Position numbers and translations under genes: made by a program. From the NCBI GenBank assembly GCA_963728565.1, contig CAVSLC010000023.1, forward strand, positions 192,001 through 256,000: DNA of 64,000 nucleotides, read 5' to 3'. The notes under the pieces were generated by a model, which worked only from the letters and a program-made list of their open reading frames with translations, did not search any database and had not been told where the DNA came from. Within the stretch, counting starts at the first letter, position 1, and each line of letters starts with the position of its first letter. Positions 3,868-64,000 of the stretch are shown here, piece after piece. This DNA comes from an uncultured delta proteobacterium. GTDB taxonomy: Bacteria; Desulfobacterota; Binatia; UBA9968.

Positions 3868-4257
3868 TCACCGGAGCCCCGGACATTTGGCCGGAGTTGT
3901 CCGTCGGCCGGAACCCTGCGACTTTTCGCGACGGCACTGACACTCGGCACAAAAGGTCGTTTCAGGCGCCGTTTGGAGGCGGTGCAGTTCGATGGGCCGC
4001 CGGCAACCGATGCAAGTGCCGTAGGCGGCTTCGCGCATCCGGATCAGCGCGTGATCGATTCGTGTGGTCTCACTGGCATACCACTCAGCTAATCTTTCGA
4101 GCAGATGACGTCTGCTTTCGTAGGCCGCTTTGTCGATTGAGTGTTTATTTTCGACCAGCGTCCGTTGTTCTTGATTTAGATAGTCTAGCGTCCGCAAGAT
4201 TTCGACTCGGCGCTGGTATAGTCTTTCAAAATACTGCTCGGTTTTTTTTACGATCAT
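3868..4257 (-). CDS. TraR/DksA C4-type zinc finger protein
   Basis: Coiled coil plus YGTCIGC…RLQTAPETTFCAEC; SD AAAGGAG before ATG 4257. Confidence 0.85.
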   Translation of the reverse strand: MIVKKTEQYFERLYQRRVEILRTLDYLNQEQRTLVENKHSIDKAAYESRRHLLERLAEWYASETTRIDHALIRMREAAYGTCIGCRRPIELHRLQTAPETTFCAECQCRREKSQGSGRRTTPAKCPGLR

Positions 4258-4724
4258 CTGATCTCCTTTGCGATCCGTGCCAAAATCAGCCATAACCCGT
4301 CGCGCAGTGTCTTGACGAGTTCCTGCATCATTTCTTTGAGGCGTTTACCGTCTCCGGCGTTCAGGTAAATCGCCGCCGGCGCGTCGGGTTGCTTGAAATT
4401 ATGAACGTAGACCCAATCGCCGGGTGTGGCGCTGGAAGACACGCGCTCAGCGATCCACCGGCGCAGCGTCTCTAATTTACCGGCGCCGGTCAAACCCGAC
4501 ACAAAAATGTTGTAGCCGCTGCTCCCCACTCCGAGCCCCAATTCCAAGGCAGCGAGCGCGCGTTCCTGGCCGACGAATTCTCTCGCGCCGCTCAGCTCGC
4601 GAGTCGAGGAAAATTTGCCGGCGATCTTGGTCTCAAAGTGCAGATCTTTCGCGCTCAGCTCACGCGGGCGAGTAGAGGATTCGGTCGCGGGCTCGAGAGT
4701 TGCCAATTCACTGTCGCCATTCAT
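4254..4724 (-). pseudogene. Truncated Lon-like (LonC/AAA_32-type) ATP-dependent protease N-terminus
   Basis: FVGQERALAALELGLG…GYNIFVSGLTGAGK…DWVYVHNF motifs; similarity ends after about 140 aa, whereas family members are several hundred aa. Confidence 0.75.
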
Positions 4725-5149
4725 GCTGCTTCTCCTGCAGGTTTTTTGGCTTTCGGTATGGTCACGCGCAACACGCCTTCATAGAACTCCGCTTTGATCT
4801 GGCTGGCATCGACCGACTCCGGCAGTTTCAGGCGCCGTATGAAGTGGCCCGATGAGCGCTCCATCGTATGAAAGTGGCCGTGACGATGGGTTTCTTCCAA
4901 CGCACGGGAGCCCTGTAAGAGCAAATCGCTGTTTGCAATCTCCACCTTTACATCATCGAGCTTGACCCCAGGAAGATCAGCTTCCAACATGAAAGCATCG
5001 TCCATTTCATAGAGATCCACGGATGGATTCCAGCCGCGCATCTCACGGCAAAAGCCCCAAGGCCGATGAATCATCTCGTCGAAAAGGCGCTCCACTTCGC
5101 GCGAGACATGAATTGGAAACGAAATTAGGTCGTTCGGGGTTTTCGCCAT
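4721..5149 (-). CDS. Hsp20/alpha-crystallin small heat shock protein
   Basis: WNPSVDLYE…ADLPGV…ERSSGHFIRRLKLP…GVLRVTIPK. Confidence 0.95.
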   Translation of the reverse strand: MAKTPNDLISFPIHVSREVERLFDEMIHRPWGFCREMRGWNPSVDLYEMDDAFMLEADLPGVKLDDVKVEIANSDLLLQGSRALEETHRHGHFHTMERSSGHFIRRLKLPESVDASQIKAEFYEGVLRVTIPKAKKPAGEAA

Positions 5150-5208
5150 CGCCGCAATTCCTCCTCATTCGTGGGCTGCATACTTTACCGTGTCCCACAT
5201 CAGTAAAC

Positions 5209-5223
5209 GCAACGGCCGTGCCA
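5209..5223 (-). promoter_or_regulatory. sigma54 -24/-12 promoter for hsp20-lon'-dksA
   Basis: TGGCACGGCCGTTGC (GG-N10-GC), 60 nt upstream of the hsp20 start. Confidence 0.85.
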
Positions 5224-5270
5224 CGTACATGCTTGATTTTCTTGCCGGTTTGCAGCGAGACAGGCGGTGT

Positions 5271-5318
5271 TTCTCAAACGTGGGAAGGGGCGGCATGGTG
5301 TCTTGCAAATCTTGCGAA
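5271..5318. promoter_or_regulatory. Tandem enhancer (bEBP) sites between divergent sigma54 promoters
   Basis: TTCTCA-AACG-TGGGAA (5271) and TTGCAA-ATCT-TGCGAA (5303), 32 bp apart. Confidence 0.65.
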
Positions 5319-5347
5319 GGGGCCTCGCGCCGCCACTCAAACATTAC

Positions 5348-5362
5348 TGGCACATCGGTTGC
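5348..5362 (+). promoter_or_regulatory. sigma54 promoter
   Basis: TGGCACATCGGTTGC, 50 nt upstream of ORF 5412. Confidence 0.85.
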
Positions 5363-5411
5363 GTTTTCATCCTTCTGAAAACGAGCTCAGCATAGGAAGG
5401 ACGCTACGTCG

Positions 5412-61559: not shown

Positions 61560-61595
61560 GTGGGATCCTCGCCAAGTGAGCGTGCCACCGGCTGA

Positions 61596-62024
61596 TTAGG
61601 CGATCGATCCCACATAATGCAGGACGTTGGTCGTGGTGACCAAACCCACCAGGGCTCCATCACTGAGGACGGGCACACAACCGATTTTCTTGTTTGCCAT
61701 GAGCATCGCGGCATCTTTGATCGGCGTGTCGGGCGTCACCGTTATGACCCGTTTTTGCATAATGTCCTTGATCAACTCGTTTTTGAGCAAAGCCGATCTG
61801 CTTTTCTGCTTAAGACCAAAGATACGGTTCGCCGCGGCGCCGATAAGGTCTCGTCCGGAGATCAACCCCACCAACTTGCCATTATCCAAGATCGGAATGT
61901 GGCGAATGCGACCAAGAGAAATTACGTCACTAGCCAGATCTAGAGTATCGTTGGGGGCCAAAGTCACGGGCGAGCCCATCATAATCTCCTTTACGGTCCC
62001 GTTCTTTTGATTTTTATTTTTCAT
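61596..62024 (-). CDS. CBS-domain protein
   Basis: VKEIM…IRHIPIL…GLIS.RD…IGCVPV…GLVTTT. Confidence 0.92.
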   Translation of the reverse strand: MKNKNQKNGTVKEIMMGSPVTLAPNDTLDLASDVISLGRIRHIPILDNGKLVGLISGRDLIGAAANRIFGLKQKSRSALLKNELIKDIMQKRVITVTPDTPIKDAAMLMANKKIGCVPVLSDGALVGLVTTTNVLHYVGSIA

Positions 62025-62099
62025 ATGAGCGCTCCTCTCAGACGTGTTGGAGGCGACGCCGGAACAATATTTCGGCGCCTCCCCTTAGCGAAGAATTGT

Positions 62100-62114
62100 G
62101 CACTGTCCGTGCCA
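62100..62114 (-). promoter_or_regulatory. sigma54 promoter for CBS-ATPase-DUF1003-LDT-YcbK run
   Basis: TGGCACGGACAGTGC; partial palindrome TCCGCA-TGAA-TAAGAA at 62198; hairpin 62049-62082 in the leader. Confidence 0.75.
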
Positions 62115-62331
62115 ATCGCAGCCGGTGCTTCTTCTCGGAATTCCCGTTGGCGCCAGCGCCCGCGAGAAGTCTAAACGGCAAGAATATTCACGCTAGTTCC
62201 GCATGAATAAGAAGAGCGCGGCAGAAAAAGTTTGCATCGCCTTTGGTCGACCGCGGACCTATCTTTTGCGGTTCATCGCAGATCGCTCGAAACACCGCCC
62301 TTATGCGGCATGCCTAAGGGGCAGCGCTAAC

Positions 62332-62790
62332 TCACTGAGCTGCAATCGTTGAGTTTGCCGGCTCCGTAAATGGGTAAGGACTAGCGGACGTGCTTATTGA
62401 TCCGCGAAGGTTTGTCGCCCTCCCACTGGTGCTCACAACGCAGCGCAAAGCAGAATCGCGGTATTGAGCCGTTGACTGGCACGTAATGCCGGGACCTTGA
62501 GGCACTCCACAGGAACTGGTCTCAGTAACATTGTCGCCTCTCCAATCGAAAATTTCCGCAACAATGATACGATTTACGCTATCGGTATTAGTGGCGAAAC
62601 AAGCTGCAGTAAAGCCAGCGGGTTCATGAATGGCTGCAGTTGAGAGATGTTCAAATCTCTGGAGATGACCGGCTGTCGTTTGAAACCCGGAGCCGTCTGG
62701 CCCAACAGTCGAGGGACTTTCGGCCCGAACGCCTGCGACAAAAATAAGCATGAGAATAGTCTTGGCGATGATGGCGTAGAACAACATCAT
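62332..62790 (-). CDS. Hypothetical secreted Cys-containing protein
   Basis: SD AGGAGG; signal peptide ending VRA; four Cys; Ser/Thr-rich. Confidence 0.65.
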   Translation of the reverse strand: MMLFYAIIAKTILMLIFVAGVRAESPSTVGPDGSGFQTTAGHLQRFEHLSTAAIHEPAGFTAACFATNTDSVNRIIVAEIFDWRGDNVTETSSCGVPQGPGITCQSTAQYRDSALRCVVSTSGRATNLRGSISTSASPYPFTEPANSTIAAQ

Positions 62791-62866
62791 AAATCCTCCT
62801 TTGTGCCCATCGACCGTCATTATCTTTTTTTGATTCCTGCACTCACGCAGGCAATTAGAAATCCCA

Positions 62867-63256
62867 TTACAGATCATAGATGGGCGTCCGAATCGCCACG
62901 TGCTCGCCCATGGCGATAGCGCTGACTATGTCGGCACGGCTGACGATTCCGATAATTTTGCCGCCGTCCGTAACCGGCACCCGCTTGATAGCGTGGGTGA
63001 TCATGAGCTGGGCAATCTCTTCAACAGCGGTATCCTCCCGGACACTGACAACTTTTCTGCTCATGATCGATTTGGCATCCTTGCCTTTTTTTGCCACGAT
63101 ATCCGCTTCCGAAACGATGCCCAGGATTTTACCCTGTTCATCTACGACTGGGGCACCGCTGATCTGATTTTTGATCAAGATCATGGCTAAGTTCCTGACC
63201 TTAGTGGTCGGGCTTATGGTAATGATGTCGCGGGTCATAACATCTTTGGCGAACAT
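62867..63256 (-). CDS. CBS-domain protein
   Basis: AKDVMTRD…ISGAPVVD…GIVSEAD…IKRVPV…GIVSRAD. Confidence 0.93.
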   Translation of the reverse strand: MFAKDVMTRDIITISPTTKVRNLAMILIKNQISGAPVVDEQGKILGIVSEADIVAKKGKDAKSIMSRKVVSVREDTAVEEIAQLMITHAIKRVPVTDGGKIIGIVSRADIVSAIAMGEHVAIRTPIYDL

Positions 63257-63268
63257 TGTTTGCTCCTC

Positions 63269-64000
63269 CTAGAATCCTCTTTTGGCCATCAACATCGCGA
63301 GGTCTGCTACGCGGCAACTGTAACCCCATTCGTTATCGTACCAACTCAACACCTTGGCCATCTTGCCATCGAGCACTACCGTCGATAGACCGTCCACAAT
63401 TGCCGAAGCGGGGTTGCCGCGAAAGTCGCTGGACACCAGCGGCTCACCGCAAAAGGCCAGAATTTCCGTCATAGCCCCTTGCGCTGCCTGTCTGAAAGCC
63501 TCATTGATAGTGTCCACTGTCGCAGACTTTTTAAGATCGACGACAAGGTCAACAACAGAGACGGTTGATGTCGGCACTCTCAAGGAGATGCCATGGAGCT
63601 TGCCTTTTAGCTCCGGCATGACAAGGCCAATCGCCTTTGCCGCCCCGGTGCTGGTCGGGACGATATTCATTGCCGCTGCCCGAGCCCGGCGCAGATCCTT
63701 GTGCATCAGGTCAAGAATTCTTTGGTCGTTGGTGTAGGCATGGGTGGTCGTCATGAGACCGCGCTCGATGCCGAAATTCTCGTGAAGCACTTTGGCAACT
63801 GGCGCTAGACAGTTCGTAGTGCATGACGCGTTTGAGACAATATGGTGCTCGCGCGGATTGTAGCTGGTATCGTTTACCCCGAGAACTAGAGTAATGTCTT
63901 CGTGGCTGGCAGGCGCGGTAACGATTGCTTTTCTGGCGCCGGCGCTTAGGTGCGCGCGTACCTGGGCGGCGTCGGTAAACACTCCGGTCGCTTCAATGAC
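63269..64000 (-). CDS. gap: Glyceraldehyde-3-phosphate dehydrogenase (partial, 5' end off window)
   Basis: [42 protein letters not shown]. Confidence 0.97.

Follow-up and report, generated by a model that had tools for sequence, protein, structure and literature searches.

A candidate heme-kinase- and sigma-54-dependent regulon for oxygen limitation on a 60-kb gene island of an uncultured Binatia bacterium

Introduction

A stretch of 64,000 nt from a Candidatus Binatia genome (contig CAVSLC010000023.1; hereafter the window, whose positions serve as coordinates throughout) holds an island of about 60 kb, from 3.8 to 64 kb, in which the genes for a sensor histidine kinase and for an adjoining NtrC-family activator lie among genes for stress, repair, and metabolic proteins. 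Does this island form a single regulon, and is oxygen the signal that it obeys? An initial annotation had proposed that a FixL-type heme kinase, an NtrC activator, and fifteen sigma-54 promoters make up an O2-sensing dormancy programme. The analysis reported here leads us to regard the region as probably a single sigma-54 regulon under two-component control, by which the cell would survive oxygen limitation. The evidence consists of promoter motifs and their enrichment, a shared enhancer architecture, the domain architectures of the encoded proteins, heme-pocket residues, and conservation in two loci from metagenome-assembled genomes (MAGs).

The best-known regulon for hypoxia-induced stasis is DosR of M. 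tuberculosis, and knowledge of how such regulons are controlled elsewhere is patchy. The island offers an unusually legible example, as a single 60-kb piece of DNA from an uncultured phylum carries a sensor, an activator, a defined enhancer motif, and about 18 promoters. With all parts on one piece of DNA, reconstitution in E. coli could be used to test every regulatory link, so that the organism need not be cultured. Domain assignments are based on a Pfam scan of 64 open reading frames (ORFs) of the window, and NCBIfam profile scores were judged against the equivalog cutoff of each model.

The Sensor Kinase and the Adjoining Activator

The two regulatory genes are as follows.

8181-10760, plus strand: sensor histidine kinase of 859 aa, with the Pfam architecture GAF-GAF-PAS-PAS-HisKA-HATPase_c
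10893-12239, plus strand: NtrC-family sigma-54 activator with a TTG start; REC, AAA+ with a GSFTGA loop, lid, and HTH_8

They are the only histidine kinase and the only sigma-54 activator, or bacterial enhancer-binding protein (bEBP), among the 64 ORFs scanned, in which no globin, no hybrid kinase (a histidine kinase with a REC domain), and no LuxR/GerE or Crp/FNR family was found either. Both PAS domains of the kinase match the solved FixL heme domains 1dp6, 1d06, 1xj4, and 8js5, with E-values from 1e-26 to 2e-28 for PAS-A, and the match with E. coli DosP is weaker (about 1e-16 for PAS-B). In both domains, the proximal His, which is part of an HD.YI.RY motif, and two Arg (GRIR) align with those of the FixL proteins of B. 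japonicum and R. meliloti; we take these residues to be H200, R206, and R220 of BjFixL, in that numbering and with the corresponding roles in the heme pocket. Thus, homology and key residues support the description of the protein as a FixL-type heme-PAS kinase. The 60 PDB matches listed for it name no DosS or DosT chain. By analogy, the kinase would bind heme, with O2 as the ligand and with the sign of response proposed below.

There is no FixJ-type partner (REC-LuxR/GerE) among the 64 ORFs, and the neighbor of the kinase is instead a bEBP. Its Pfam matches comprise PF00072, PF00158 (1.5e-69), PF25601, and PF02954, which correspond to REC, the AAA+ domain for sigma-54 interaction, the lid, and a Fis-type HTH and thus bear out the REC-AAA+-HTH_8 architecture; the loop reads GSFTGA.

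Sigma-54 Sites and Their Enrichment

The fifteen GG-N10-GC sites proposed initially are all present (15/15) at the positions and on the strands given for them, with TGGCA(C/T)-N5-(T)TGC(G) as their common form. Whether such motifs exceed the background depends on how they are defined. The bare GG-N10-GC motif is not enriched, with 756 matches in the window and densities of 9.7 per kb in intergenic and 12.4 per kb in coding DNA, and a loose 16-mer allowing up to two mismatches occurs 31 times window-wide vs 31.4 expected, which is chance. In contrast, strong enrichment was found for TGGCAYNNNNNWTGC (extended consensus TGGCAY-N5-WTGC), which has 10 matches vs a mean of 0.75 expected, a number reached in 0 of 100 shuffles; nine of the ten are intergenic, and intergenic DNA makes up 22% of the window. 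The form GGCAY-N6-TGC yields 19 matches, 13 of them intergenic and six nominally coding, and two of the latter (18571 and 44375) actually lie in extensions of ORF calls, with RBS-preceded starts (RBS, ribosome-binding site) or domain positions downstream of them.

A sigma-54 matrix was also built from six sites of a related locus only (L002, described below) and is thus independent of the window. Its top seven matches in the window are seven window promoters, and at a score of at least 9 it recovers 11 of the 15 initial sites, missing 15205, 18571, 36788, and 44388. It is not a clean predictor, since 17 of its 36 matches at or above 9 are coding (19 are intergenic). Three candidate sites were added to the initial list, namely 7993(-), 10772(+), and 28571(-). 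As in sigma-54 promoters, the -24 GG and the -12 GC lie exactly 10 nt apart in TGGCAC-N5-TTGC, in an intergenic and gene-oriented position. Judged by these sequence features, the island promoters are real sigma-54-type sites.

Their arrangement largely agrees with the initial description. The distance from the -12 GC to an RBS-preceded start, hereafter the leader, is 25-210 nt at 14 of the initial sites, as proposed; no RBS-preceded start is listed for 18571(+). All listed sites point toward the next gene, and divergent pairs are found at four places (5222/5349, 18432/18571, 36608/36788, and 44388/44789). Most sites are intergenic, as had been claimed for all of them, and the two that fall inside longest-ORF calls, 18571 and 44375, do so in N-terminal extensions.

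A Shared Tandem Enhancer Dyad

A further argument for common control was not part of the initial annotation. In a blind search of all 5-mer dyads with spacers of 0-8 across the 18 promoter-upstream regions of the window and L002, TCGCA-N4-TGCGA (with at most one mismatch) was found in seven of the 18 regions; 20 random sets of regions gave 0.35 on average. The full consensus is TTTCGCA-N4-TGCGAAA, and it occurs as tandem pairs 31-32 bp apart upstream of promoters. This search replaced k-mer counts, whose enrichment was modest (TGCGAA, 9 vs 1.5; TGAGAA, 8 vs 1.2), and by-eye listings of half-sites, which were unclear.

A first dyad matrix included window sites and was thus circular, and the dyad statistics therefore rest on a matrix from six L002 sites. 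With this matrix, seven tandem pairs score at least 18 in the whole window. All seven are intergenic, and six of them sit 37-173 bp upstream of a sigma-54 GG. In first-order Markov models, 0.09 such pairs are expected in the window, or 0.02 if intergenic composition is used, and none of 200 simulations reaches seven. At 12 of 17 promoters, the best pair 31-32 bp apart in the upstream region scores above the 95th percentile obtained with 3000 random anchors (Mann-Whitney p = 1.6e-8); the 17 promoters are located in 13 distinct regions and are therefore not independent. On the upstream side of the GG, one dyad is typically centered at a distance of about 48-60 bp and the other at about 80-90 bp, which is the usual geometry for NtrC-type activators. 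The existence of this shared tandem enhancer dyad makes a single regulon much more likely.

The dyads are listed below. Pair scores are summed scores; the single-dyad scores of 18.7, 7.2, 9.9, 11.8, and 15 come from the matrix that included window sites.

5269-5320 (5269, 5301): tandem pair common to the divergent promoters 5222(-) and 5349(+); score 19.1
6850-6901 (6850, 6882): tandem pair centered 80 and 48 bp upstream of the GG of 6940(+); score 30.7; contains the best single dyad of the window according to the matrix that included window sites
10861-10880: single dyad between the 10772 site and the activator start codon, 12 nt before the latter; score 18.7, the fourth highest of the window
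15337-15387 (15337, 15368): tandem pair 142 and 173 bp upstream of 15205(-); score 24.4
18479-18521 (18479, 18502): weaker dyads between the divergent promoters 18432 and 18571, spaced by 23 bp and not 31-32; scores 7.2 and 9.9
19595: single dyad upstream of 19652(+); score 11.8
28654-28704 (28654, 28685): tandem pair common to 28571(-) and 28732(+); score 21.9
37215-37265 (37215, 37246): orphan tandem pair in a gene-less 650-bp gap (37099-37751); score 26.6, third best pair
42830: single dyad at the RtcB operon promoter 42779(-); score 13.5-15
44689-44739 (44689, 44720): tandem pair upstream of 44789(+), the promoter of the E1/E2 operon; score 23.7
50831-50881 (50831, 50862): tandem pair upstream of 50920(+); score 31.4, best pair

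The dyad at 50831 is a perfect TCGCA-N4-TGCGA, and the same pair layout is found in L002 at 14413/14444. The dyad before the activator gene lies about 75 nt downstream of the 10772 site. A comparison of the activator-upstream regions of the window (10772-10892), L001 (1308-1428), and L002 (approximately 11400-11530) indicates that this layout is the same in all three, with the dyad at 1400 in L001 and at 11498 in L002. Its location between the 10772 site and the activator start, downstream of the promoter, suggests autoregulation, possibly negative, and this dyad is thus likely to be autoregulatory.

Conservation in Related Loci

Relatives were sought by scanning genome contigs with six peptide patterns from the kinase, which retrieved 24 loci. 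The heme motif is present in four of these, one of which (L014) is too short to judge. The kinase, the activator with its GSFTGA loop, the promoters, and the dyads recur in two related MAG loci. The closest match of the window is L001, a Candidatus Binatia MAG contig with identities of 93% for the kinase and 95.5% for the activator; it is a 2.8-kb fragment that covers the C-terminal part of the kinase and the activator. In L002, from a MAG labelled delta proteobacterium, the kinase (52% identity) and the activator (78%) are likewise adjacent, and three USP genes, two CBS genes, and another USP gene follow downstream of the activator.

L002 holds six sigma-54 sites and three tandem dyad pairs. 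The 14-nt core of its site 18236(-) is identical to that of window 62113(-), and each of them precedes a CBS orthologue, the two being 73% identical. The orthologous USP operon carries the sigma-54 site 14502(+), the counterpart of window 50920(+), and the promoter 7993(-) has its counterpart at 8908(-). The TGGC and TTGC columns of the 10772 site are invariant in the window, L001, and L002. As for the heme motif, it is found in both PAS domains in the window and L001, and in PAS-B only in L002, whose neighborhood also contains genes for hemerythrin-, rubrerythrin-, and cytochrome-c-domain proteins.

Outside these loci, the same heme-PAS motif occurs in L005 (9905-13424, gammaproteobacterial MAG) with canonical fixL and fixJ (REC-GerE) genes, a single REC gene, and fixK (Crp family). 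Its output is of the LuxR type and that of the island is a sigma-54 activator; thus, the same sensor domain is coupled to different outputs in these two lineages. The Brocadia loci L008 and L009 encode a kinase-bEBP pair without the heme motif and were not counted as relatives.

Promoters and Predicted Targets

The predicted promoters and the genes that they would control are listed here, with matrix scores referring to the L002-only sigma-54 matrix; 18571(+) and 44375-44388(-) are the two discussed above with respect to ORF calls. Minus-strand sites are named in the text after their higher coordinate.

5209-5222, minus: sigma-54 promoter of an Hsp20 gene (4721-5149); leader 59 nt; score 17.8; further downstream, by Pfam, a LonC-helical-domain protein (4254-4724) and a DksA/TraR zinc-finger protein (3868-4293)
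5349-5362, plus: sigma-54 promoter of a gene for a 109-aa protein without known family (5412-5741); leader 49 nt
6940-6953, plus: sigma-54 promoter of a gene for a YbaK/aminoacyl-tRNA-editing-domain protein (6992-7477); leader 38 nt
7980-7993, minus: newly recognized sigma-54 promoter of a gene for a 37-aa hydrophobic peptide (7827-7940), divergent from the kinase gene; score 16.3
10772-10785, plus: newly recognized candidate sigma-54 promoter, TGGCTT-N5-TTGC, before the activator gene; score below 9
15192-15205, minus: sigma-54 promoter of genes for a DksA-zinc-finger+BON protein (14393-15166) and a CBS protein (13947-14396); leader 25 nt; score below 9
18419-18432, minus: sigma-54 promoter of genes for a phosphoribosyltransferase (17546-18310) and an AAA_33 kinase-like protein of 568 aa (15679-17385); leader 108 or 210 nt
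18571-18584, plus: sigma-54 promoter of a gene for an S30AE + cold-shock-domain fusion protein (to 19275)
19652-19665, plus: sigma-54 promoter of two small ORFs and genes for a tandem USP (20065-20973) and an Atg22-like transporter of the major facilitator superfamily (MFS; 21132-22466); score 17.7
28558-28571, minus: newly recognized candidate sigma-54 promoter of a gene for a DUF2267 protein (28054-28482); leader about 75 nt; a 16-mer with 2 mismatches, absent from the matrix matches scoring at least 9
28732-28745, plus: sigma-54 promoter of a gene for a HAD-phosphatase+HerA/DUF87 ATPase fusion (28863-30602); leader 117 nt
36595-36608, minus: sigma-54 promoter of a gene for a BON protein (35713-36432); score 13.9
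36788-36801, plus: sigma-54 promoter of a gene for an 84-aa protein without known family (36844-37098); leader 42 nt
42766-42779, minus: sigma-54 promoter of genes for a 110-aa protein, archease, RtcB, phosphoribosyl pyrophosphate (PRPP) synthetase, a 96-aa ORF, and a PGA_cap protein (37749-42720); leader 45 nt; score 16.0
44375-44388, minus: sigma-54-like promoter, CGGCAC-N5-TTGC, of a gene for a DUF2267 protein (43807-44322); score below 9
44789-44802, plus: sigma-54 promoter of the TGGCTT type before genes for acetate-CoA ligase, E1alpha, E1beta, and E2 (44904-50229); leader 101 nt
50920-50933, plus: sigma-54 promoter of genes for an Hsp20, three tandem USPs, an adenosine-specific kinase, and a single-domain USP (50978-55294); score 18.6, the top match in the window
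62100-62113, minus: sigma-54 promoter of genes for a CBS protein (61596-62024), an 88-aa ORF, and an EIIA-fused P-type ATPase (57834-61296, frameshifted); score 15.7

The extents of these operons are predictions. The operon of 36608(-) possibly extends to two CBS proteins, a dienelactone-hydrolase-like protein, and phosphoenolpyruvate (PEP) synthase (30683-35486), a proposal that follows from their shared strand only, as the gaps reach 388 bp. In the case of 18571(+), the S30AE Pfam match begins at residue 36 of the long ORF, and the true start must therefore lie downstream of the promoter. The sigma-54 site is inside the longest ORF of this fusion gene (18544-19275, plus strand), whose start may be a non-ATG codon after a GGAGG. 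The gene for the 37-aa peptide (7827-7940, minus strand), with its own sigma-54 site, has kept its position and partly its sequence in L002 (8730-8840, minus strand).

Altogether, the Pfam scan places in the island six USP, five CBS-pair, two Hsp20, two BON-containing, and two DUF2267 proteins, as well as two DksA/TraR zinc-finger proteins and the single fusion of S30AE (ribosome hibernation) with a cold-shock domain. RNA repair and salvage are represented by RtcB with archease, a nicotinate phosphoribosyltransferase, PRPP synthetase, another phosphoribosyltransferase, and the adenosine-specific kinase, and metabolism by PEP synthase, acetate-CoA ligase, and the E1alpha, E1beta, and E2 subunits of a 2-oxoacid dehydrogenase. 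The remaining proteins with recognized domains include the AAA_33 kinase-like and PGA_cap proteins, the HAD-HerA fusion, the Atg22-like MFS transporter, and the EIIA-fused P-type ATPase. PncB, Acs, and PEP synthase score above their own NCBIfam cutoffs.

Proposed Mechanism and Alternative Explanations

By analogy with FixL, the soluble kinase might be held inactive as long as O2 is bound to its heme and might autophosphorylate when the heme is in the deoxy form, with the two N-terminal GAF domains possibly adding a second input. It would then phosphorylate the adjacent activator, presumably the protein that recognizes the dyads, which would bind the tandem sites, assemble its AAA+ ring, and open sigma-54 closed complexes at at least 12 of the approximately 18 promoters. 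Some 45 genes might thereby be switched on from an essentially silent state. The predicted induced set comprises the ribosome-hibernation protein (HPF-CSD), the two Hsp20, the six USP and five CBS proteins as nucleotide-binding sensors, the BON and DUF2267 proteins, and the two DksA/TraR-type proteins; RtcB and archease for RNA repair; PncB, PRPP synthetase, phosphoribosyltransferase (PRTase), and adenosine kinase for NAD and nucleotide salvage; and Acs, E1/E2, and PEP synthase for acetate and pyruvate metabolism, along with the P-type ATPase. Its physiological role would be to combine translation shutdown with the maintenance of protein and RNA, salvage, and acetate/pyruvate metabolism. The promoter and dyad before the activator gene would provide autoregulation.

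Several observations weigh against a single oxygen-controlled regulon. The best NCBIfam model for the kinase is FixL (NF041777), with 333 bits vs a cutoff of 850, followed by AtoS and ZraS, both of which are partners of sigma-54 activators; because the FixL equivalog cutoff is so far from being reached, the kinase is FixL-type by its sensor domain and not a FixL orthologue. The activator similarly stays below the cutoffs of the named equivalogs (AtoC, NtrC, ZraR, NtrX, RtcR, and others), with 431.6 bits vs 714 for AtoC, 397.6 vs 558.6 for NtrC, 376.6 vs 760 for ZraR, and 347 vs 600 for NtrX. Its sigma-54 contact loop, GSFTGA, deviates from the canonical GAFTGA, with F, T, and G retained; all three orthologues (window, L001, and L002) have GSFTGA, and five other bEBPs of the fetched loci have GAFTGA. 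None of the 64 window ORFs matches the Sigma54 family, as rpoN would. The L002 kinase has no GAF domains, differs in its N-terminal region, and carries the heme motif only in the PAS domain adjacent to HisKA. The dyad (with at most one mismatch) is not enriched window-wide, with seven matches, five of them intergenic, vs 5.1 expected and 33 of 100 shuffles reaching seven, so that its significance is only in its location and tandem spacing and not in its abundance. No tandem pair exceeds the random 95th percentile at five of the 17 tested promoters (7993, 19652, 44388, 62113, and the upstream side of 10772), and only weak pairs are found at 36608/36788; five to seven promoters are therefore without a convincing tandem pair, and some of them may answer to another activator. 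Lastly, several island genes are decayed (see below), and relaxed selection on part of the programme or imperfect assembly is therefore possible.

How far do these points favor other explanations? If the motif matches were due to chance or to a compositional feature of intergenic DNA, with no regulon behind them, the chance-level counts of the bare GG-N10-GC and of the loose 16-mer would be accounted for, but the numbers for the strict consensus, the orientation of every listed site toward the next gene, the seven observed dyad pairs vs 0.02 under the intergenic-composition Markov model, and the retention of sites at orthologous L002 positions, at protein identities of 52-78%, make this explanation hardly credible. 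The promoters might alternatively be real and served by several activators encoded elsewhere, with the adjacent pair controlling few of them or only itself. The promoters devoid of a convincing tandem dyad would fit with such a scheme, as would the facts that 64 kb represents only part of the genome and that rtcB operons elsewhere have a dedicated sigma-54 activator, RtcR being among the NCBIfam models scored. The acetoin-type E1/E2 operons of other bacteria also have a dedicated sigma-54 activator, AcoR. However, the seven pairs of one type found where 0.09 are expected include those of the E1/E2 (44689/44720) and USP operons, the RtcB operon has its single dyad (42830), the dyad before the activator gene is kept in three of three loci, and the scan of 64 ORFs yielded no second bEBP, all of which renders control by several activators quite improbable.

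A further alternative leaves the wiring as described and replaces the signal, which could be NO, CO, or redox state read by the heme, or a dominant input to the GAF domains; the island would then mediate a general stress response of the energy or stationary-phase kind. In favor of this are the two extra GAF domains of the kinase, in place of which the L002 orthologue has a different N-terminal region, and the fact that USP, Hsp20, CBS, and HPF genes are general stress genes; in addition, there are heme-PAS sensors that respond to redox state, B. abortus NtrY being an example (PMC7240162). On the other side, the window kinase retains the His and both Arg of the FixL pocket in each of its PAS domains, as does the L002 kinase in its single heme-type PAS domain, the conserved part of the kinase is the heme-PAS domain adjoining HisKA and its N-terminal region is the variable one, and the L002 neighborhood comprises the hemerythrin, rubrerythrin, and cytochrome c genes. 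In FixL, the His and both Arg of the heme pocket have roles in O2 binding. We thus consider a signal other than O2 unlikely, and oxygen limitation the probable one. Going further, the two-protein switch made of a FixL-type tandem heme-PAS kinase and an NtrC-type activator might be the master regulator of a complete and clustered Binatia dormancy programme, with about 45 genes and at least 12 promoters under one enhancer grammar, and an independently evolved sigma-54 counterpart of DosR; this is proposed only tentatively and with more doubt than confidence.

Comparison with Known Systems

The initial annotation held that the characterized heme-based hypoxia systems signal only through LuxR-type regulators, to which the NmpRSTU system of M. 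xanthus is a counterexample (PMC11841059). In this system, the heme-dependent globin-coupled kinase NmpU acts on the hybrid kinase NmpS, and the latter on the NtrC-like NmpR, which binds tandem GCGCA-N5-TGCGC sites and activates sigma-54 promoters (PMC11841059). The NmpR regulon consists of seven promoters and 23 genes, and its targets are given there as a hypoxia-induced CBS gene, a USP gene, a P-type ATPase-cbb3 operon, hemN-hemerythrin, and the nmp genes themselves (PMC11841059). On this account, the proposal of an undescribed third wiring stands only in part, as the logic that leads from a heme kinase through NtrC to sigma-54 is known from NmpRSTU, and what sets that system apart is its use of a globin sensor and a relay. 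The two systems have in common a heme-dependent kinase that ultimately controls an NtrC-like regulator, sigma-54 promoters, CBS, USP, and P-type ATPase genes, control of their own genes, and tandem dyads of the GCA-N-TGC type about 14-15 bp apart edge to edge. In contrast to the globin-coupled signaling of NmpRSTU via the NmpU, NmpS, and NmpT relay, a FixL-type tandem heme-PAS kinase adjoins the activator in the island. The sites, GCGCA-N5-TGCGC and TCGCA-N4-TGCGA, respectively, are of a similar kind with different spacing and flanks, and the seven scattered promoters and 23 genes centered on O2 use (cbb3, hemN) compare with approximately 18 promoters and 45 stasis-type genes within 60 kb. What is new relative to NmpRSTU is thus a different class of heme sensor, presumably wired directly to the activator, a different enhancer, and a larger, clustered, DosR-like target set. 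The island would extend the heme-sensor-NtrC-sigma-54 logic to this other sensor class and to a much larger set of targets.

With the FixL-FixJ-FixK cascade, the island shares a homologous heme-PAS domain (E about 1e-28), the conserved His and two Arg, and a kinase core that resembles FixL. However, FixL acts on FixJ (REC-LuxR/GerE), which leads to FixK (Crp/FNR) and sigma-70 promoters, whereas the partner in the island is a sigma-54 activator, and the window kinase differs from FixL by the duplication of its heme-PAS domain and the addition of GAF domains.

The DosS/DosT-DosR system of M. tuberculosis is similar in having a heme kinase, about 50 genes, and overlapping gene families, which include USPs, an alpha-crystallin Hsp20, CBS, a ribosome-associated factor, RtcB, nicotinate PRTase, a phosphoribosyltransferase, and a P-type ATPase (PMC5309233). 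The families USP, Hsp20, CBS, HPF-like, RtcB, PncB, PRTase, PGA_cap, AAA kinase, and P-type ATPase are all present as Pfam families in the island and are likewise listed for the DosR regulon (PMC5309233). The corresponding DosR members include Rv2626c (CBS), Rv0079 (ribosome-associated factor), Rv2631 (RtcB), Rv0573c (nicotinate PRTase), Rv0571c (phosphoribosyltransferase), and Rv1997 (P-type ATPase), along with Rv0574c and Rv2004c. The systems differ in that DosS and DosT carry the heme in a GAF domain and act through the LuxR-type DosR and sigma-70-family polymerase, unlike the bEBP of the island. An island CBS protein matches Rv2626c with E = 9e-9, in 16th place of the PDB match list, and the five PDB matches of the one tandem USP tested include none that is named as an M. 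tuberculosis entry. As the similarity to M. tuberculosis proteins is weak or unranked, the DosR match is functional and at the family level only, and is not one of orthology. The island also suggests convergent rewiring of a shared stress gene kit.

In B. abortus, the heme-PAS redox sensor kinase NtrY is paired with an NtrC-family regulator, which resembles the pair described here (PMC7240162). NtrY differs in being membrane-bound, with a single PAS domain, and in governing nitrogen respiration and envelope genes, whereas the island activator has its loop (GSFTGA) and predicted sigma-54 targets. The NtrX proteins of alphaproteobacteria are not known to have a functional GAFTGA loop and work without sigma-54. 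The lxa locus of Burkholderia cenocepacia is reportedly another large single locus, rich in USP genes and with stress and metabolic genes, that is switched on by low oxygen; to our knowledge, it has not been described as driven by sigma-54 or a bEBP. A 2025 survey of sigma-54 mentions an enrichment of USP genes among the predicted targets for Planctomycetia only (PMC12316311). A paper on the sigma-54 regulome of D. vulgaris has no USP, heme, or oxygen content, and FleS/FleR of P. aeruginosa was rejected as a precedent for heme-PAS signaling to sigma-54, the paper concerned merely aligning FleS-PAS with FixL. A literature search, with about 1.7 million PMC papers and the subscription journals outside its reach, found no direct FixL-type kinase/bEBP system and nothing on regulation in Binatia.

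Should the DosR-like interpretation be true, a conserved "hypoxic stasis" gene set would have been rewired repeatedly to the O2 sensor and sigma factor of each lineage, and in this case to the one sigma factor with zero basal expression, which would make entry into stasis an all-or-none event. The set of promoters and enhancers could also serve as an O2-responsive and tightly off sigma-54 expression system.

Other Features of the Window

The orphan dyad pair at 37215/37246 has no convincing sigma-54 site and is accompanied only by a weak GGCTTG-N-CTGC at 37368(+), within 260 nt downstream of which no RBS-preceded ORF of at least 25 aa is listed; Rfam yields nothing in the gap, which may hold an unannotated small gene or RNA. 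In the window as a whole, the Rfam scan gave no family at gathering score, and neither tRNA nor tmRNA was found. Upstream of the island, window positions 1-3800 contain four ORFs (129-256 aa) without a Pfam family; the 256-aa ORF, the only one of them scanned against NCBIfam, matches no family there either. The sigma-54 matrix has a match in this region at 2193(-), with a score of 12.4. The additional promoter candidates 27912(-), 37368(+), and 43016(+) were left as doubtful.

The annotated start of the acyl-ACP-phospholipid acyltransferase / acyl-ACP synthetase gene (25660-27909) is overlapped by a dyad at 27958 (score 15) and by a weak GGTAT-N-TTGC site (region 27912-27977); this gene may also belong to the regulon, in which case its start would have been called wrongly. 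In a Rhodothermales MAG (L003, 1281-4922), a homologue (39% identity) of the 568-aa AAA_33 protein adjoins a GAF-containing kinase, which is related to the GAF region of the window kinase, and this arrangement may represent another regulatory context for the same gene kit.

Disrupted genes are found at two places. Within 22547-25660, a class-V fructose-1,6-bisphosphatase keeps only profile positions 160-360, with an in-frame stop upstream, and a decayed gene for pyruvate kinase is interrupted by several frameshifts and in-frame stops. The P-type ATPase gene (57834-61296, minus strand) is split by a frameshift shortly after the DKTGT phosphorylation motif into two overlapping ORFs, with the junction at about 59764-59825, which could be a real pseudogene or an assembly error. 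At its N-terminus, this ATPase carries an EIIA-2 domain of the phosphotransferase system (PTS), an unusual fusion.

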